Assembly (NCBI GenBank): GCA_964486865.1
Contig: CAZAOZ010000004.1
Span: forward strand, 38,602-102,601
Length of the DNA stretch: 64,000 nucleotides
Source: an uncultured Bordetella sp.
Lineage (GTDB): Bacteria; Pseudomonadota; Gammaproteobacteria; Burkholderiales; SG8-41
Reading direction: 5' to 3'
Every line of letters starts with the position of its first letter. The first letter of the stretch is position 1. A model generated the notes under the pieces. That model saw nothing but the letters and a program-made list of their open reading frames with translations. It had not been told where the DNA came from and made no database searches. This document shows positions 33,558 through 41,266 of the stretch, one piece after another. The position numbers were made by a program, and so were the translations under genes.

Positions 33558-34088
33558 TCAATCGCGGCGTCCCTGTTGATCCTCTCGTTTCCTGGACCGC
33601 TCATTCCCAGACCCGTCGCGGACAAACCGAACCGGATAGCGGAAAAGTGGGCGGCTCTCCCCGGGCCGACCGGTCGAGAAGTCAACGTATGGCATCACGT
33701 CTCCCCACATTCCCCCCGCTGCGAACTTATCGCGCGGCGTATCAGGAAATACGGCTTCATCCACAACCGCCTTTCTACGGTCTTGGTCTGGATTCGGCTG
33801 CAAGACGAGGCTCAGTAGCTCGGCTTGGGTTGGCAGGCGCCACGGTGTTTCGCGGCGAGGTCTCAGCAACTCATTGCCAATCCCGCCATTGCCGGACGGC
33901 TCGCCCACGCATCGATCTTGCGCCAGATGCATGCCTCTGGCGCAACGTCTCCAGATGAGATGGGTTTCCCTGTCCAGAACCTCTTCGCCCTGGTACAGCA
34001 ATTCGTAGCGGCCCGCCGGCATCTGTGCTGCTGCGATGCCGCTCGCGACGAGAAGGACTGCCGCGAATACCGCGCTACGCACGCTCAT
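33558..34088 (-). CDS. DUF1566 (Lcl C-terminal) domain exported protein
   Basis: Signal peptide ...GIAAA|QM. HLIWRRC, PWRLPTQAELLSLV and YPVRFVRDG match the DUF1566 pattern. ATGA overlap with the upstream gene. Confidence 0.68.
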   Translation of the reverse strand: MSVRSAVFAAVLLVASGIAAAQMPAGRYELLYQGEEVLDRETHLIWRRCARGMHLAQDRCVGEPSGNGGIGNELLRPRRETPWRLPTQAELLSLVLQPNPDQDRRKAVVDEAVFPDTPRDKFAAGGMWGDVMPYVDFSTGRPGESRPLFRYPVRFVRDGSGNERSRKREDQQGRRD

Positions 34089-34528
34089 CGAATTTTCGCC
34101 CGCTCTTCCCTCATGAGTTTGTCAGTATCCACGCCTTTTTCTTTCATCAACCCGAGTGTGCGCTCCCATCCTTTGCGCTGGGTCACCATCTCCTTGTCGA
34201 AATCGCCGGCCGACATGCCCAGGCAACTGGCACTGTCTTTTGCGATCTCTCGTTTGATATTCGCGTCCGAGCAGTCCTCGGCTTTTTTCAAATTATTCTT
34301 CACAGACATCTGGCAAGCGCGTGCGACGTAGCCGGGATACTCAGGCGAACCTCTGGTGGCCGCGCAATATCCCTTGAGGTCGCGCTTCGCCATCGGCACT
34401 TCCGCGCTTGCGATCAATTTGGCACCTTTGCGCATTTCTGCGTCGGGCTCCGCCCCCCAAACACCGGACGCGGTGAACAACATGCTGGTGACAAAAAAAA
34501 CCAGTGCCATGCGAATCCTGATAGCCAT
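34085..34528 (-). CDS. hypothetical exported protein (4 Cys)
   Basis: Strong RBS AAGGAG 6 nt upstream and signal peptide ...SGVWG|AE. No family recognised. Confidence 0.55.
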   Translation of the reverse strand: MAIRIRMALVFFVTSMLFTASGVWGAEPDAEMRKGAKLIASAEVPMAKRDLKGYCAATRGSPEYPGYVARACQMSVKNNLKKAEDCSDANIKREIAKDSASCLGMSAGDFDKEMVTQRKGWERTLGLMKEKGVDTDKLMREERAKIR

Positions 34529-34650
34529 GATGACTCCTTGTCAGTATTGTGGTTCGGAAAAAACGGGATAACCAGAACAAAGAACAATGCGTCAGCCGTA
34601 CTGTTCAAAACGAATTACGCCAACCGATGATCCCTTGAGCAGCCGATTGT

Positions 34651-34977
34651 TCATCGTCTGTACACACCACCACCAACCCTGGGATCGTCGGCTTGGGTCT
34701 TGGGTGCCGGGCTGGTCGCTGGTTGCACCGCTGTGTCCGTCACAACACCGGGCGGACCCTCTTCACGGCGCTCAACAGGACGTTTGCCAGCTCGGTACGC
34801 CGCCGATTCCGCAGCATACAATCGATTGGTGCAATCCCGGCATTCGTAACGTTGTTCAAAATATTCCATCTTGACGGGGAGTGCTGACTTTCCCGGCAGG
34901 GAACTTGAAACGATGCCGGAAATTATCCGCTCCACTTCTGCCGTTACATCACTTTTGCAGAGACTGCAGCTATACAT
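34651..34977 (-). CDS. small CxxC...CxxC (zinc-ribbon-like) protein, long paralogue
   Basis: MYSCSLCKSDVTAEV...MEYFEQRYECRDCT, GGGGGA RBS. Paralogous to 35052..35258. The tail ends QADDPRVGGGVYRR. Confidence 0.5.
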   Translation of the reverse strand: MYSCSLCKSDVTAEVERIISGIVSSSLPGKSALPVKMEYFEQRYECRDCTNRLYAAESAAYRAGKRPVERREEGPPGVVTDTAVQPATSPAPKTQADDPRVGGGVYRR

Positions 34978-35051
34978 TTCTGATCCCCCAACAAGGTGAG
35001 AACGAGTCGGCAGGCTCGCTTTGCCGTTGCACAGCGCACGCTTTCGCCGGT

Positions 35052-35258
35052 TCAGCTGCGGCGTCTTGCTGCTCTTTCCGCCGCCGTTTCCGCCGCAGAT
35101 GCCTGTTGATTGCAAGCCCGGCAAACATAGCGTTGTTCAAAATATTCCATCATTCCCGGGAATCCTGCCTGTCCCGGCGCAGAACTTGAAACAATGCTGG
35201 AAATCTCCCGGTCTACTTCTGCCGTTACATCTCTTTTGCAGAGACTGCAGCTATACAT
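35052..35258 (-). CDS. small CxxC...CxxC (zinc-ribbon-like) protein, short paralogue
   Basis: MYSCSLCKRDVTAEV...MEYFEQRYVCRACN, with the same RBS and upstream sequence as the neighbouring copy. Confidence 0.5.
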   Translation of the reverse strand: MYSCSLCKRDVTAEVDREISSIVSSSAPGQAGFPGMMEYFEQRYVCRACNQQASAAETAAERAARRRS

Positions 35259-35366
35259 TTCTGATCCCCCAACAAAGTTAGAACGGGATGGCAGGCTCGT
35301 ACTGCCGCTGTACGGCATGATGTCCCGAGCCAATCATGTGCATCGGTGAACCCCGCCATTCCCTCA

Positions 35367-36995
35367 TCAGGCGCACCGACCCAACAGTCCGCGGCCGACC
35401 TGGAAATGTACGTCGACCGCTGAACCGCCATCGGGCTTGTCAAGCGTTTCGCCGTACTTGCACGCGAACCAGTAGGTCGTCTCCCCGGAGGTATGCATGA
35501 TGGACTGACTGTTCGGTCCTGCGCCGATGTGCCACATGCCGCCCCCGTTTTTCTCGCAGTCCATAAATCCGGAATCGCTGCCTCTGGTGGGCCGATAGAC
35601 ACAGTAGATGTACTCAACGGCATACGGACACGCGTTAATCACTCCGCCACCTTGTTGCGGCTTCAAGCATTGATGCGCCTCCAGGCCGGCTTGGTGACGC
35701 TTGGGTTTTCCCTGGCGTGCCCGGTCAAGTTCGGCCTGGCGTTTCTGGGCAAGCGCGGTGGCTCGGTTCACGTCTTGGGAAATGTGGGTGGCTCCAGGCG
35801 TACCGGCTGGATCACGATTTTCATTGTCCGTTGTGCTTCCGGCACCCGCGAGCTTCAGGTTCCCACTTTTAATCCAGGCTTGTGCGTTTGGGTGCCCCGC
35901 GCAACGTCCCTCAAAGAGTTCTATCTCGACACGACCAAGACGAGCCTTCACGTCGTTTGCATTGCCTGGCCAGCTTTTTGATTCACGATGCACGGCCAAT
36001 ATTTCTCGGTTACAGGAGATGATTTGGTCGGGCGATAAACCTCCCGGGACTGTATTTGCCGGTGAACTGGGGGAAGGGGGGGTTACGGATGTACGCTTGA
36101 TCTGGGCCGCCATATGGCGAGCGACGCACGCATACACCAGTTGCTCCGCGCCCCACTGCGAAGTTTCAAGCTCCTTCGCTTTCTTGGTATAAATGTCCGC
36201 CATTAGCAGAAGCGCGTCACCGTAGTTTGGTGAAGTTGGAGCAGGCGGACGATTCTTATCCTTAAATGCATTACAAATTGGGGGGGCGCTAGGGGAAAAC
36301 GTCCGGATTCCGTCATGTCCCATTTTCATGCCGCCACAGCCATAACTAAGATAGTTGCTGAAGTCCTGCATCGTACGCGGTATCGTTTCATTCATTAGTA
36401 CGTTTATTGGCCTGTCGATGGCTCGAAAACCAGATGTTGTCGCATTGGAAAGCGTTCTGAGCCGCTGACGCTCGGCCTCACAAACCTGCGTAGGTTGAGA
36501 GGGAGGCGAACTGCCGCGTTCAAGCACGCTTATCTGCGCACGGATCACACACAAAAGATATCTTTGAAAAAAAGCCCCACGCAGTTGGCCAGCGTCCCGA
36601 ACATTCATCTCTTGCGATTTTTCCCACAATTGCAATCCGCGGAGATTTCTCTCTATGTCCGGAAACCTTTTCTTTATTCCTGTACCCGATGCGGACTCTG
36701 CCAGCTCTCTTCTGAGGGGGTCGTAGTCTGCTTTGAAGACAAGTATCCTCTCCAATGAACCGGGATCACTGGGGCGAATCTTGAGAAGAGCATTGGCTGG
36801 CTCCTCTCTGACCGCCGCCTGATGCTCTGCTTCGCAAACCTGCGCAATTGCCTGAGAGGACGCGCAAACCAGCATCAACCCTATCAACACTGACCATGGA
36901 TTGATTGGCTTCCTGGATTCACGGAGACGATCCGGCGGCAAAGCAACCATTTCTCCATCATTCATTTCATTCTCCTTGGGCAAACGATTGCTCAT
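35367..36995 (-). CDS. hypothetical exported cysteine-rich protein (542 aa)
   Basis: N-terminal signal anchor or peptide ...SSQAIA|QV, a repeated QVCEAE motif, and a C-terminal six-Cys module shared with 37818..39041. ATGA overlap with the upstream gene. Confidence 0.6.
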   Translation of the reverse strand: MSNRLPKENEMNDGEMVALPPDRLRESRKPINPWSVLIGLMLVCASSQAIAQVCEAEHQAAVREEPANALLKIRPSDPGSLERILVFKADYDPLRRELAESASGTGIKKRFPDIERNLRGLQLWEKSQEMNVRDAGQLRGAFFQRYLLCVIRAQISVLERGSSPPSQPTQVCEAERQRLRTLSNATTSGFRAIDRPINVLMNETIPRTMQDFSNYLSYGCGGMKMGHDGIRTFSPSAPPICNAFKDKNRPPAPTSPNYGDALLLMADIYTKKAKELETSQWGAEQLVYACVARHMAAQIKRTSVTPPSPSSPANTVPGGLSPDQIISCNREILAVHRESKSWPGNANDVKARLGRVEIELFEGRCAGHPNAQAWIKSGNLKLAGAGSTTDNENRDPAGTPGATHISQDVNRATALAQKRQAELDRARQGKPKRHQAGLEAHQCLKPQQGGGVINACPYAVEYIYCVYRPTRGSDSGFMDCEKNGGGMWHIGAGPNSQSIMHTSGETTYWFACKYGETLDKPDGGSAVDVHFQVGRGLLGRCA

Positions 36996-37621
36996 CGCCT
37001 GTAAGACCCGCCTACTACTTTGGGATCGTCAGCTTGGGCATTGGGCCCTGCGTTGCCCGCAGGTTGACGCACAACCTGCGCTTGAACCGGTTGCCCGACC
37101 GACCCCGTGAGCCGGGCAAGACTCGCGCCGTCGCCCGGGTTCGGGCTGAACCCGAACTTGGTGTTGCTCAGCTTCATCATGCCGGCACTGAATCCGGGAG
37201 AATTCAGCGCAGCCAATAGCGCACGCTCCAAGTCCCTGACTATGCTTGCTGGAGTTCCCGGAGGAGCAAATACTCCCGCCCACCTCCAATTTGAAGTTTC
37301 ACCGACAACGGCTGCCAATGGCACAAGACCGCCTACCTCAGGTGCAGGCTGACTGATTGCTGCAGTGACAATGATTATCTGACTGCCGTCCGCTCGTGCA
37401 TTACCGAATCCCCGGACGGCAACGGCTCCAACTTCGCCAGGCACGTTGCTGATAACTACCGGTTTCCCGAGAATAGGGGCCAGCTCCGTCCCAAGGATTC
37501 TTGCGACGATGTCAGTCAGTCCTCCGGGCGGGAAAGGAACAGTCAATTGAACGGCCTGAGCAAAAGCAGTCGCGCTGGATACCAGCCAAAGCACGGCAAT
37601 CAGATTGCGTAGCGTGTTCAT
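36992..37621 (-). CDS. Bug/TctC-like periplasmic protein lacking the central domain
   Basis: Signal peptide ...TAFA|QA. LTVPFPPGGLTDIVARILG aligns with IVVPFAAGGPADITARTVG of the neighbouring TctC, but the protein is 209 aa against 320 aa. C-terminal tail QADDPKVVGGSYRR. Confidence 0.58.
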   Translation of the reverse strand: MNTLRNLIAVLWLVSSATAFAQAVQLTVPFPPGGLTDIVARILGTELAPILGKPVVISNVPGEVGAVAVRGFGNARADGSQIIIVTAAISQPAPEVGGLVPLAAVVGETSNWRWAGVFAPPGTPASIVRDLERALLAALNSPGFSAGMMKLSNTKFGFSPNPGDGASLARLTGSVGQPVQAQVVRQPAGNAGPNAQADDPKVVGGSYRR

Positions 37622-37817
37622 TTATATTCTTTCAAAGATGACATTAAGTGCGGTCATTAAAAGTATCGTTACTTTGGGTAATACCACCCTGTCTCTGAGT
37701 CGCCCGCCTGGAGGAAGCTGACTGCGCATGGGCCAAAGTAGACAATAGGCGGAAGGCAGTGGTCAATTGCCGCAACACACTGGCCGGGGTCACGCAAGGC
37801 TCCTCGTTGGTCCTGCG

Positions 37818-39041
37818 TTATTGGATCGGAATAATCCGGGCATCCAGCGGTCCAGGATGAAAAGCATTGCCGCGTCGTTTGATGCACGCGCGATTGCCTG
37901 CCAGGGTGACACCGCCCTTCCGTATGACTTCAATCTGTTCAGTCCTGGCGTCACAGGCAAATACGGATTTACGGGTTGTTATCAGGTTTCGATCAAAGAA
38001 ATTAAACCGCGTCGATGGGTGTGTTCCCATAGGCTGGTCACGCGGTATTTTTCCCGTTCGCTGTATCGTGTCGCCGCCGTATAAATTCTCGCAGCCTTGC
38101 CGCGTATCCTGTATTGCTCCGGTCAGAACATTGCGCCCGCCCGAGACATAACAAAAATGGGTAGTAAGGTAGTTGGGACACGTATTCACCAGCACCACGG
38201 CCTTCTCAATTCGGGAGCGTGGCTCGCCTGCCGCCCATGTGCTGGTGTCGACGGACGGGTCATTGCCTGCAGGAACAACTTTCAGGCAATGCGCCATTGA
38301 CCCGGTGACCTCGACCATGTCGCTGGATGGGCTCGCAGAAGCTGCGCCGGGGCCACCGCCACTGCCGCCCGGGGAATTACCCGCCAGCGCCTCCAGCGCC
38401 AGTTGTCTTCGTTCGGCGGCAGTTTTGCCGCCTGCTGCCGCTGCAACTGCACCGCTCAGCAGGCCCAGCACTTGTGGCTCGGCTGCCGGCTGACGGACCG
38501 GCGCCCAGGTTGCGCCCATGCTCGCGAGCAGATCCTTGCCGTCGGTTTGCCGGCTCCAGTCGTCCATGGCCAGCAGAAAGGGCCTCGGCATGTCGAGAAA
38601 TGGCATCTCGGTGCGCGGCTGCAGCGCCGAGCCGACGATTGCGGTGCGCCAGCCGATCAACGCATCACCCTTGCGACCGACCTCGTACATCACGCCGCTG
38701 TTGCGCAGCCCGCGCTCGATATGGCCCTCGAAAAAAAACACCGGCTGCTGCTCGTAGTCATAACCTGTTACCGCGCCCCGTCCCTGCATCCGCCCGCCGT
38801 GGCATGCGCCGCTCCAGGTGAGGCCGCGCACTGCGGCGGCCGAGAAGGACAGCGCGCAGCCGCTCTCGGTGAAGCTGACGTGGCGCCCGGAAATCTCGGG
38901 ATCGGGCTGCGACTGGAACAGCAGCGGCGCGCCGCTGATCGCACGCTGGGAGGTGACCTGGACGGGTGACTGCGCATGGGCCACGGCAGGCAACAGGCAG
39001 CAGGCGGCGATCAGGCACCACAGCGCACGGATGAGTGTCAT
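37818..39041 (-). CDS. hypothetical exported protein (407 aa) with C-terminal six-Cys module
   Basis: Start MTLIRALWCLIAACCLLPAVAHA|QS, preceded by a GGGGAA RBS. Gly/Ala/Ser-rich linker, then the module CLK...NTCP...FCY...CEN...FAC...C. Confidence 0.6.
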   Translation of the reverse strand: MTLIRALWCLIAACCLLPAVAHAQSPVQVTSQRAISGAPLLFQSQPDPEISGRHVSFTESGCALSFSAAAVRGLTWSGACHGGRMQGRGAVTGYDYEQQPVFFFEGHIERGLRNSGVMYEVGRKGDALIGWRTAIVGSALQPRTEMPFLDMPRPFLLAMDDWSRQTDGKDLLASMGATWAPVRQPAAEPQVLGLLSGAVAAAAGGKTAAERRQLALEALAGNSPGGSGGGPGAASASPSSDMVEVTGSMAHCLKVVPAGNDPSVDTSTWAAGEPRSRIEKAVVLVNTCPNYLTTHFCYVSGGRNVLTGAIQDTRQGCENLYGGDTIQRTGKIPRDQPMGTHPSTRFNFFDRNLITTRKSVFACDARTEQIEVIRKGGVTLAGNRACIKRRGNAFHPGPLDARIIPIQ

Positions 39042-39151
39042 GCAATGTTCCCCGTTCAATGTGTATCGAAATAACTGGCTCAACTTGGGACAGGTATACC
39101 GGCAAAAGAGCCCACCGCACTATCATGGTCTGAACTGGCCCCTGGTGTTGT

Positions 39152-41266
39152 CTACCACGCGACCCTTGGCGCGCAATCGGCACTGTTGGTCGCGATCTGC
39201 CTGCAGGCCCGCATGGTGCTGTCTTGCGACTGCTTCATCGAAGCATATCCACCATACTCCGGTTGCCCCCTGCATAACCGGTCAAGCAGCTTTAGTCGCT
39301 CGCTCATCATGTAGAGTCCGACCTGCATGCTGGGCACGGTGGAATTTGCGGCCCCAGTACTTTTCCCGCGTTGGTTGATAACCGTGAAATCGGCCTCCTG
39401 CTGGGCAACAGCCGCCTTGCAGGTTCCGTCAGGCGGTCTTGCCGGTGCGCCGCCCCCTCCCGCAACCGATGTTTCCTGAAACAGTTGCCGAATTGCCGCT
39501 TCAGTCCTGGCCGCTGTGCCACCGTAACTCTGACCAGTGTCGCAATTGAAGGGGCCTCCACTCCTCAGGCTCTCCGTTTGCCGGCAATACCCCTGCGTGC
39601 TGCGCAAACTGGCCGCCACTGCCTCCTTGGATGACTGATCATTGGCACAGGCGGGGTGCGTGTTGGCAACCCGCACGTAAATCTGCGCAGCCCAGACCTG
39701 ATCCGAATAAATCTGCCCCAGCGGATACCGGAGATTGCTCCCCGCCGCATTCATCGGGTTGCCATCATTCACTGGTCCCACCAAGCTTTCCAGTATCTCG
39801 CGACAGCTTCTGCCACCGGCACTTGCCCCTCTGCCACCGGCGCCTGCACCAGTTGCGGCAGTGTTGGCCGATGCCACAGACGGGCCACGAGTCGCATTGC
39901 TGATTGCCCGTGACTTCTCCTGCTCCAGTGCACTGACCTCCTGCTCGCAACTGCTCTTGGCCTGGTCACAGCGATTGCTGCATTGCTGGACCTGTTCGCC
40001 GGCAGCACCGGAAGCTGAGGAACCTCTGGCCATGAATATCGAAAACACGCCCACCGCCGCAACGGCCATGCAACCCGTATTGCAGCTGCTGTCATTGGCG
40101 GCGCACTGCTCGCGCGCAGCGGCAATGCGCTGGTCGAAACTGTCCGTGATGCGCTCTGCGGGTGTCTGGTTTGCGATCCGTTCGGCCTCACGAGCCCTTT
40201 CCAGCCTTGCACTGGCTTCCTGCGCCTTCCGGTTTTTTTCCTCCTGCTCTCTGTCCGCCCGCGCCTGTGTGTCCGCGAGATTTTTATCCACCCAAGCACC
40301 GGCTTCCCGCTTGCTTTCCTCCTCCTTGCTGGTCGGCTTCTGTTCGGACGAGAAAGCCTTGCTGAACCAGTCGCTGACTTGACTGATGCCTTTCTCAACT
40401 TGACTGACGCCTTTCTCCAGCAGGCCCGCAATACCATCGGTGCCCCCGGCCGGTTCGGTTTTTTTCGATTTCGGTTCTTCGGGCGTATCCCAGAATTTCA
40501 GATAATCAGCCAGCGCGACTTTGGGCGTCTTGCCGGAACTCGGCAGCGTAGTCGGGCATGCCGGATACGGGGTGCTTGCCAGGCTCCGGTAGCCAGCAGC
40601 ATCCGCGCCCAGCCCACCCCCATCAATCAGGCTCTGGAGGTTCCTGCGTAACTCTTCGTGCCCCTGTTTTGTTGAAAGACAGGCATTGATATTCCCGTCG
40701 GCGAGCGCACAGCGCTCCTTGGCGCGCACGGCATCGCGCATATTCGCCTCGTTGGTTGCGGCGTCGCACATGAGCAAGCCTTCTTTGGCCAGCCCCAGAC
40801 CCGCATCCCACACAGTTGTGTCATAGACCTTTCCCTTCAGCCGCTCGACAATTTCATCAGCTTTCTCCTTGGCGCCCGGCTGTTTGGGACCGCCGGATAA
40901 ATATTCCCCGCATTTGGTCCGGTCAAAATCAAACAGGCAACTGGAAATCCCGGACTGGGGCACACCGCTCTCGACCAGCGCGTTACTGACCCTGCTATCC
41001 GTCACTTCGGTGGCGCTGCCCCTGCCGCCCAATCCGAGTCTGGAAAGAAAGCTTTTCGCCTTGATGCAGGTATCCGCAATGCCAAAAACAAAACGGCAGC
41101 CGGCGTGAGCGGAACACAGACTTGCCTGAAAGCGCTGATCTTCCGTCATGTCGTTGTCGCAATTGGCGGGGTTGGCATGCGCCCCGGCACTGACCAGCAA
41201 CGCAACGCATAAAGCCGCAACCCGCACCCGGTCCGACCGGGACGGAAAAAAGGAAATACTTGCCAT
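39152..41266 (-). CDS. hypothetical exported cysteine-rich protein (704 aa) with central charged coiled-coil-like region
   Basis: Start MASISFF...LLVSAGAHA|NP. The 849-aa track form would overlap the phoD start and has no signal peptide at its N-terminus. More than 25 Cys, and a KEEESKRE...REQEEKNRKAQEASARLERAREAER segment. Confidence 0.6.
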   Translation of the reverse strand: MASISFFPSRSDRVRVAALCVALLVSAGAHANPANCDNDMTEDQRFQASLCSAHAGCRFVFGIADTCIKAKSFLSRLGLGGRGSATEVTDSRVSNALVESGVPQSGISSCLFDFDRTKCGEYLSGGPKQPGAKEKADEIVERLKGKVYDTTVWDAGLGLAKEGLLMCDAATNEANMRDAVRAKERCALADGNINACLSTKQGHEELRRNLQSLIDGGGLGADAAGYRSLASTPYPACPTTLPSSGKTPKVALADYLKFWDTPEEPKSKKTEPAGGTDGIAGLLEKGVSQVEKGISQVSDWFSKAFSSEQKPTSKEEESKREAGAWVDKNLADTQARADREQEEKNRKAQEASARLERAREAERIANQTPAERITDSFDQRIAAAREQCAANDSSCNTGCMAVAAVGVFSIFMARGSSASGAAGEQVQQCSNRCDQAKSSCEQEVSALEQEKSRAISNATRGPSVASANTAATGAGAGGRGASAGGRSCREILESLVGPVNDGNPMNAAGSNLRYPLGQIYSDQVWAAQIYVRVANTHPACANDQSSKEAVAASLRSTQGYCRQTESLRSGGPFNCDTGQSYGGTAARTEAAIRQLFQETSVAGGGGAPARPPDGTCKAAVAQQEADFTVINQRGKSTGAANSTVPSMQVGLYMMSERLKLLDRLCRGQPEYGGYASMKQSQDSTMRACRQIATNSADCAPRVAW

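Follow-up and report, generated by a model that had tools for sequence, protein, structure and literature searches.

The last 111 residues of protein A, an exported protein encoded in a 64,000-nucleotide stretch of DNA from an uncultured Bordetella sp. (hereafter the window, meaning the whole stretch that was analysed, which lies inside a 223,593-bp metagenome contig, ENA ERZ27247828), are a core member of a large and undescribed family of domains of about 110 residues that carry six cysteines (C1 to C6) in a constant order. The C-terminal region of a second exported protein encoded nearby, protein B, is best read as a distant relative of the same family. Protein A is the product of the open reading frame (ORF) 35367..36995 and protein B that of 37818..39041, both on the minus strand, and the original prediction from this DNA had proposed that these two proteins, otherwise without resemblance, end in the same mobile, disulfide-bonded module. 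To the explanation taken whole, namely that A is a family member, that B is a distant relative, and that the domain may act as a binding or anchoring module, I assign a rough probability of 55%. What is described here is a new domain family within a known general kind, that of shuffled, disulfide-rich extracytoplasmic modules.

A large family of six-cysteine domains

A word-indexed search returned 12 relatives whose last ~110 residues are 49-93% identical to those of A and whose N-terminal parts differ, and a third search of this type, run with a mixed alignment, added a single new protein, P0026 (P-numbers stand for related proteins, and L-numbers for the metagenome or genome loci that were compared). 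An exhaustive HMMER search of 1.84 billion cluster representatives (clusters at 50% identity) yielded at least 396 proteins at E<=1e-3, of which 145 pass E<=1e-10, and almost all of the 150 matches listed score 50-230 bits against a hidden Markov model (HMM) of A-type tails only. When about 151-155 representatives are aligned, the six cysteines and an asparagine two residues before C2 are invariant, and the spacing from C2 to C3 is 9 in 151/151 representatives; the other spacings span 12-26 (C1-C2), 11-22 (C3-C4), 29-38 (C4-C5) and 20-32 (C5-C6), and A, with its cysteines at residues 443, 456, 465, 480, 512 and 541, lies within all of them. With the pure A-type HMM the domain of A scores 210 bits, and with the expanded one 116 bits. 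Also, the domain ends no more than 15 residues from the C-terminus in 141/156 proteins and is internal in 15/156, while 117/135 full-length members begin with a hydrophobic N-terminus, and the Pfam partners found among 142 members are TctC (3 proteins), TonB_C, SoxY and TPR, which are of periplasmic type, together with a few marginal matches.

No Pfam model covers the six-cysteine domain in these 142 members, searches of NCBIfam, PADLOC, PHROGs and PDB sequences returned nothing for A or for the six-cysteine family, neither tblastn against plasmids nor a scan of viral contigs turned up a copy of the domain, and a literature search found no description of the family. AlphaFold (AF2), given a 15-sequence alignment of the A tail, returned a model with a predicted template modelling score (pTM) of 0.70 and a predicted local distance difference test score (pLDDT) of about 82-92 across the domain, in which a long N-terminal helix is followed by eight strands and one short helix; since Foldseek matched this model to nothing in the PDB or among viral structure predictions below E 0.26, a new small fold locked by disulfides could come to light once a structure is solved. 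The carriers among species-representative genomes are metagenome-assembled genomes (MAGs) of Polaromonas, other Burkholderiales/Betaproteobacteria, Gallionella, Thermomonas and Arenimonas. With ~400 clusters at 50% identity lacking a name, a structure, or a model in Pfam, NCBIfam or the PDB, a description of the family would annotate hundreds of hypothetical exported proteins in Polaromonas, Gallionella, Thermomonas, Arenimonas and other environmental bacteria.

Membership extends beyond the close relatives of A. Tails of the P0013 type are secure members (hhalign E 3.3e-6 to the A type) that carry a longer C1-C2 insertion, which by eye could be helical, and P0017 and P0115 match the family at hhalign E 3.7e-5 with a probability of 71%. 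In P0024-like tails, which may be related, C3 and C4 appear by eye to be absent together.

The ORF of A spans 542 aa from 36995, and its start there overlaps the stop of the upstream gene; the likelier start is the ATG at 36965, giving 532 aa (35367..36965, minus strand), with an AAGGAG Shine-Dalgarno sequence 6 nt upstream of it and 532-aa gene calls on three contigs. Both A and B begin with Sec-type signal peptides, and outside of these every module of the two proteins contains an even number of cysteines, as expected for disulfide-bonded exported proteins. A lipoprotein reading of the signal peptides was rejected by eye: the cysteine of the h-region comes without a lipobox conserved in the orthologues, and an AxA-type site is conserved. 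In the numbering of the 542-aa frame, protein A is built as follows.

36501..36842, minus strand: first two-cysteine module after the signal peptide (residues 52-165), found alone before the six-cysteine domain in P0002 and P0003
36096..36485, minus strand: four-cysteine module starting QVCEAE (residues 171-300), found alone before the six-cysteine domain in P0004, P0005 and P0006
35856..36044, minus strand: helical two-cysteine module (residues 318-380; C..EI...W.GNANDV.ARLG...LFEGRCAGHP.A.AWI)
35703..35798, minus strand: conserved helix (residues 400-431; ..AQKRQAELDRARQGKPKRH) that precedes the domain in the close subfamily
35370..35702, minus strand: six-cysteine domain (residues 432-542; KRH...AHQC...VINACPY...YC...DCEK...WFAC...GRCA), the core family member

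BLASTP aligns A 11-171 with P0002 1-161 at 63% identity and A 170-325 with P0004 25-191 at E 2e-27, and A 162-542 matches P0006. The helical two-cysteine module is also present in P0013, P0025, P0054, P0055, P0070, P0079, P0087 and P0127, and the helix at residues 400-431 is conserved in P0002-P0012 and corresponds, at lower confidence, to helix 6-33 of the model.

The C-terminal region of protein B and its two resemblances

Protein B (407 aa) carries its six C-terminal cysteines at residues 252, 288, 297, 317, 363 and 386, and is organized as follows.

38499..38969, minus strand: conserved N-terminal domain (residues 25-181; SQRAISGAP..W.G.C.GGRM.G.G...DDWSRQTDGKDLLASMGATWAP)
38322..38498, minus strand: helix and Gly/Ser/Pro linker (residues 182-240)
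37884..38321, minus strand: C-terminal Cys-rich region with six cysteines (residues 241-386), a possible divergent family relative
38067..38291, minus strand: C1 to C4 part (residues 251-325), the sole part above chance against the family profile and also the part that resembles thiol peroxidase
37821..37883, minus strand: tail IKRRGNAFHPGPLDARIIPIQ (residues 387-407) that follows the last cysteine

The original prediction listed, with their DNA ranges, six cysteines in matching contexts in the two tails (AH(Q)CLK, V.N.CP, CE(K/N), (W/V)FAC and G(N)R(A)C) and placed C3 exactly 9 residues past C2; all of these are present in the translations, the DNA ranges are correct, and the spacing holds in A and in B. 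B carries the signature of the family, that is, six cysteines in order, an asparagine two residues before C2, and a C2-C3 spacing of 9. The evidence for kinship comes from a family profile of 155 sequences, refined over four rounds with no B-type sequence included, which was compared with three B-type orthologues, namely B of the window, P0015 and P0021. On their whole tails this HMM yields 2.7-5.9 bits with a per-sequence p of 0.001-0.009, the real score being reached by 11, 2 and 1 of 3000 shuffles, and by 10, 4 and 8 of 3000 with the cysteines held fixed, and in hhalign the family and B align across 98 columns at P 0.007, each of the six cysteines being paired. Because HMMER penalises the long insertions of B, the ungapped conserved blocks of the family were also scored in order with free gaps, and the whole tail of B then reaches 38-43 as compared to 7 +/- 6 for shuffles, which is above all 2007 equal-length segments taken from the other ORFs of the window (maximum 29). 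The first half, from C1 to C4, has block scores of 17.0, 23.6 and 18.5 in the three orthologues, which were reached by 0/12,974 natural 85-residue segments (maximum 15.4), 2,546 of them holding at least 4 cysteines; the Gumbel fit to the block null is poor in its tail (p about 1e-3 to 5e-3), and the empirical count was therefore relied on. Similarly, the HMM score of the first half was reached by 2, 0 and 3 of 2000 shuffles, and P0013-type tails compared with B give hhalign P 0.0016.

A number of observations weigh against this kinship and have to be set beside it. The original prediction expected the two tails to stand out in a pairwise shuffle test, and their similarity is not significant, neither by BLASTP (E 0.77 over 33 residues) nor by Smith-Waterman (z 1.4-2.2 with 1000-2000 shuffles); thin profiles do little better, with hhalign P 0.078 for the A type (11 sequences) against the B type (3 sequences). 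The bits that the family HMM gives to B are few, and in an HMM search of all ORFs of the window, B was not among the top-listed matches and spurious ORFs reached E 0.15-2.8. The signal in the first half comes mostly from one 22-residue block around C2-C3 (V.N.CP.Y....C), the remainder being the CE block, and the second half with C5 and C6 is at chance, its block score being matched by 717-2729 of 4167 segments and its HMM score being reached by 283, 152 and 35 of 2000 shuffles. The spacings of B outside C2-C3 are 36, 20, 46 and 23, of which C1-C2 (36) and C4-C5 (46) exceed the family range, and B is without the conserved proline after C3, the Ser-Trp and the Pro-x-Asp of the family. The comparison of B-type with P0017-type tails is modest as well (first halves z 1.6-4.5, second halves z 0.3-2.6, tails z 1.9-4.7), and the AlphaFold model of the B tail, made from a four-sequence alignment, has a pLDDT of 36 and is unusable, which makes its Foldseek matches meaningless. 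Furthermore, the first half of B resembles thiol peroxidase, as discussed below. On balance, the claim that one module closes both proteins failed in pairwise comparison and gained partial support from the B-free profile, for C1-C4 but not for C5-C6; and since the alignment with P0013-type tails pairs the last cysteine of B with C5 of the family (ACIKRRGNAFHPGPLDAR vs ACRKGPNMGFQPVELDPR), the originally proposed correspondence of C5 and C6 may be wrong even for related domains. Judged on these sequence comparisons, the two tails are probably homologous, with that of B as a divergent family relative in its C1-C4 core.

The relatives of B show how its parts are combined. Its N-terminal domain recurs in 11 relatives, where it is followed by at least seven unrelated C-termini. 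P0017 shares the N-terminal domain and linker of B (55% identity over 337 columns, reaching into the tail), and a PGP.D tail ten residues past the last cysteine is found in P0017-type proteins (P0017, P0115) and in B; since P0017-type proteins match the six-cysteine family, this lends indirect support to the kinship of B. The tail of B stands behind two different N-terminal parts, in P0014 and P0021, and a scan of Joint Genome Institute (JGI) metagenomes for B-type tails returned nothing. At L017 647-1264, by eye, the coiled-coil and beta C-terminus of P0018/P0019, which carry the N-terminal domain of B, is a separate 205-aa gene, which hints at gene fission or fusion of modules.

Of the competing explanations, the one that survives best, and that I still consider unlikely, is that the C-terminal region of B is a decayed thiol-peroxidase-like domain (a peroxiredoxin of thioredoxin fold) outside the family of A, and that its six-cysteine look is coincidence or local convergence. 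A phmmer search of the PDB with the B tail found residues 55-130 of 4je1, a 'probable thiol peroxidase' (Tpx), at E 1.4e-4 and 25 bits, the next match being at 14 bits, and the alignment of B 251-325 with 4je1 55-130 covers 75 residues with 24 identities and a single one-residue gap. The B-type profile matches 4je1 at E 1.8e-3, Smith-Waterman comparison of the three orthologues with the 4je1 segment gives z 14.5, 8.7 and 7.7, and the first half of B of the window reaches z 4.0-5.9 when compared with Tpx proteins from E. coli plasmids, Enterobacter, Streptomyces and Aeromonas. The match spans the C1-C4 half and includes the 26 residues that B has beyond the family of A, and the A-type, P0013-type and P0017-type tails show no similarity to Tpx. 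In the HMMER alignment, the resolving cysteine of Tpx falls on C3 of B, while the peroxidatic cysteine is a valine and the threonine of PxxxTxxC an aspartate in B. However, the match fades in the orthologues, to E 0.88 for P0015 and to none at E<=10 for P0021, the profile match weakens to 0.073 when the profile is broadened with P0017, and about one-third of the Tpx identities fall at positions that vary within the B type, which looks like a lucky match of a single sequence; the six-cysteine signal, by contrast, is consistent in all three orthologues. A Tpx-family HMM is also weak on B (p about 0.03; hhalign P 0.056), Pfam and NCBIfam searches of B gave no match to Redoxin, AhpC-TSA or Tpx (E<=0.1 to 5), and the second half of B has no similarity to Tpx. 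No ORF of at least 80 aa in the window or in the compared metagenome and genome loci matches Tpx.

The Tpx explanation does not strictly exclude the family one, because the two are compatible given descent from a Tpx-like ancestor or a mosaic origin. Both resemblances could then be real, if the six-cysteine family arose from a peroxiredoxin-like ancestor by loss of helices, with the B type as its least reduced form, or if B is a mosaic of a Tpx-like piece and a six-cysteine paralogue. The two signals do fall in the same 75 residues of B, and B has the look of an intermediate, in that its BLASTP alignment with P0017 needs three insertions in B that make it colinear with Tpx; P0013-type members also have the longer C1-C2 insertion, and the locus shuffles modules. 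However, no direct similarity links the family of A to Tpx (hhalign P 0.4-0.9), Foldseek finds no peroxiredoxin in the PDB for the model of A, and this model is nearly all beta with one short helix, so that descent from Tpx would require a change of fold, which is rare. With the Tpx signal itself unstable, I regard this combination as quite improbable, and prefer the reading in which B is probably a divergent relative of the six-cysteine family.

Module exchange and the surrounding locus

That the domain is mobile and joined to different N-terminal parts, as first proposed, is strongly supported for the domain of A, whose partners are helical Cys-pair modules, TctC-like parts, TonB_C, SoxY and, in P0025, the N-terminal domain of B. 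P0025 consists of this B domain, the helical module of A and a bona fide A-type six-cysteine domain. P0062 and P0115 fuse a TctC-like part to the six-cysteine domain, and a truncated TctC-like gene lies immediately upstream of the six-cysteine gene in the window, L019 and L021.

The exchange can also be followed between related strains. Over 39019 to 38356, the 5' 660 nt of the gene for B, the contig that encodes P0016 (L015) and the window share 92.5% identity, and beyond this they are unrelated; the breakpoint at 38356 lies inside the Gly/Ser/Pro linker of B, and past it P0016 has an entirely different C-terminus of 300 aa, with the genes for the Zn-ribbon and 147-aa proteins coming straight after. 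The two sequences become similar again at the small Zn-ribbon gene that lies downstream of A in the window, so that the related strain represented by L015 has neither the tail of B, nor the TctC-like gene, nor A. A C-terminal domain and gene content have thus been swapped at the level of strains. The window itself holds two pairs of direct repeats, flanking B and A, that look like scars of cassette duplication or replacement.

37719-37808 vs 38967-39056: direct repeat D3, ~90 nt, 70% identity
37644..37793, minus strand: 49-codon ORF in D3, just after B, a decayed copy of a B-like 5' end (signal peptide)
34633..34725, minus strand: direct repeat D2, a copy of 'tail motif + stop + A-type start', 72% identity to 36974-37066

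The D2 copy lies downstream of A and holds a 13-codon relic, MNNRLLKGSSVGV, of an A-type start. Module swapping between near-identical strains, together with a tail motif shared by unrelated neighbouring proteins (described below), points to an unstudied system of envelope-protein variation.

At this locus, modular exported proteins form a recombining island. G+C is 54-56% across 34000..38000, against 62-68% for the greater part of the window and about 64% in the flanks; the drop coincides with the island, which is bounded by a PhoD gene and a full-length TctC gene. Within it lies the following gene, just upstream of A.

36992..37621, minus strand: exported TctC-like mini-protein of 209 aa, ending ...QADDPKVVGGSYRR

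The stop codon of this gene and the start of the 542-aa frame of A overlap in the sequence ATGA, and the match of its product to Pfam TctC covers positions 201-252 of 274 only (E 1.4e-9). In the close subfamily of A, the window (33558..37621, minus strand), L019, L020 and L021 have a conserved operon, with the same order on independent metagenome contigs: a TctC-like mini-protein (~200 aa), an A-type six-cysteine protein and a 68-aa CxxC...CxxC protein, then another small protein with the tail motif, a 147-aa exported four-cysteine protein and an Lcl_C/DUF1566 protein. This operon is confined to the close subfamily, and no single gene is common to all of the six-cysteine loci compared. The 68-aa ORF (35052..35258, minus strand) and a 108-aa ORF (34651..34977, minus strand) are tandem paralogues joined by DNA repeat D1 (83% identity); they are CxxC...CxxC zinc-ribbon-like, have no signal peptides, and are kept in L015, L019 and L021, the second bears the tail motif, and the sole library match of the pair is a faint PHROG match. 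On the other side lies a large Cys-rich exported neighbour of 704 aa (39152..41266, minus strand; longest ORF to 41701), which has no family match. By eye, its N-terminus (ANC.....C.AH.GC......C..A..FL) also starts a 278-aa protein upstream of P0008 (L005) and a 193-aa protein of L017, and its C-terminal LC(R)GQPEY...C...C segment is seen again in L015, which suggests that this neighbour is part of the same network of modules.

Many otherwise unrelated proteins encoded beside A-type six-cysteine genes, among them TctC-like, NMT1-like, MORN-like and Zn-ribbon proteins, close with the same tail, (A/D)DDP(K/R)V.GG.(Y/F)R(R/P) followed by the stop.

36992..37030 and 34651..34689, minus strand: tail motif in the window
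L005 9966-10004; L019 2375-2413 and 4204-4242: tail motif in the loci of relatives
L020 804-842, 2506-2544 and 3134-3172; L021 1846-1884 and 3529-3564: tail motif in the loci of relatives

Between the window and a Polaromonas MAG the tail motif is kept through synonymous changes, which means that selection acts on the peptide. A similar motif, DPFPK(I/V).GG, occurs inside fused proteins, where modules meet. To my knowledge no function has been described for the tail motif, which might serve in processing, sorting or interaction, or mark a recombination junction.

Possible roles and known systems

Since both proteins have Sec signal peptides, the domain is expected to fold outside the cytoplasm. 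There the six cysteines would pair into three disulfides and so hold together a small beta domain of eight strands. The hairpin layout of the predicted model makes C1-C2, C3-C4 and C5-C6 the likeliest pairs, and the joint absence of C3 and C4 that P0024-like tails appear by eye to show is a further hint. Low-complexity linkers join this C-terminal domain to interchangeable N-terminal modules, and recombination in these linkers and in conserved gene 5' ends shifts modules from gene to gene; the C-terminal region of B is then most likely a distant relative with two enlarged loops and an added tail, recognisable in its C1-C4 core only. The conserved positions are mostly structural (Cys, Gly, Pro, Trp) and the partners are of periplasmic type, which favours a stable binding or anchoring module over an enzyme. 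My best guess, from sequence features alone, is therefore that the domain may serve as a disulfide-locked binding or anchoring module.

Two other proposals concern function and may overlap with the readings above. In the first, which I find improbable, the C-terminal domains would be toxin-like effector heads of a Sec-dependent polymorphic system, in which a constant N-terminal part delivers and the head is swapped. In close relatives the N-terminal domain of B does precede at least seven C-termini that are unrelated to one another, the break falling sharply within the linker, and the locus has relic gene starts and low G+C; such C-terminal swapping is the defining pattern of polymorphic toxin systems (Zhang et al. 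2012, PMC3482391). However, Pfam, NCBIfam, PADLOC and PHROGs revealed no known trafficking, toxin or defence family, no small immunity-like gene is conserved beside the six-cysteine genes across loci, and the family of A has a constant C-terminus and a variable N-terminus, the opposite of the arrangement in a polymorphic toxin, and conserved residues that are mostly structural. The second proposal, that the domain is a C-terminal sorting or anchoring signal, like the type IX cargo domain, directing proteins toward some export or attachment step, draws on its place at the extreme C-terminus in 141/156 proteins as a small beta domain behind diverse signal-peptide-bearing modules, and is very improbable given that it matches no known sorting domain in sequence or fold, has no dedicated machinery genes nearby, has a few small modules as partners and not enzymes of many kinds, and is internal in 15/156.

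A broader and rather speculative picture, for which I would give long odds, is that the six-cysteine domain, the tail motif and the interchangeable Cys-paired modules together form a new Sec-dependent, recombination-driven exported system of freshwater and soil Betaproteobacteria that trades entire modules at conserved junctions and so varies either a binding repertoire of the surface or periplasm or a set of effectors, in which the six-cysteine fold is perhaps derived from a peroxiredoxin with the B type as an intermediate.

Among known systems, the nearest analogue in description, the apicomplexan s48/45 domain, is a module of ~120 residues with six conserved cysteines, three disulfides and a beta sandwich, which is repeated and portable in secreted and surface proteins. 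The family described here is likewise a portable six-cysteine module, by description and as an analogy only, but it is bacterial (Betaproteobacteria and Xanthomonadales-type MAGs); s48/45 is absent from the Pfam matches of A, B and the 142 relatives, and no 6-Cys entry is among the Foldseek matches listed. The C-terminal domain (CTD) of type IX secretion, likewise small and of beta structure, closes many different proteins that carry a signal peptide, and six disulfide cysteines are not a known feature of it. The six-cysteine domain resembles it in being small, beta and C-terminal on diverse exported proteins, and differs in having no Pfam or Foldseek match to it, in occurring in other taxa, and in having no secretion genes nearby. 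The periplasmic binding proteins of the Bug/TctC type (PF03401) are related to the locus through the truncated TctC-like parts that are fused to or lie upstream of six-cysteine domains, whereas the six-cysteine domain itself is unrelated to TctC and the 209-aa protein covers part of the fold.

Polymorphic toxin systems (PMC3482391) are like the relatives of B in sharing an N-terminal part and differing past the linker, with relic cassettes nearby; here, in contrast, there is a Sec signal peptide only, and the C-terminus is the conserved element in the family of A. Lastly, Tpx, the atypical 2-Cys peroxiredoxin represented by 4je1, is colinear with B 251-325 and places its resolving cysteine on C3 of B, but B has lost the peroxidatic cysteine and PxxxTxxC, and the first ~50 residues of Tpx are absent in B. 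If the link between B and Tpx were true, B would document how an enzyme fold decays into a Cys-rich binding module, a rare finding.

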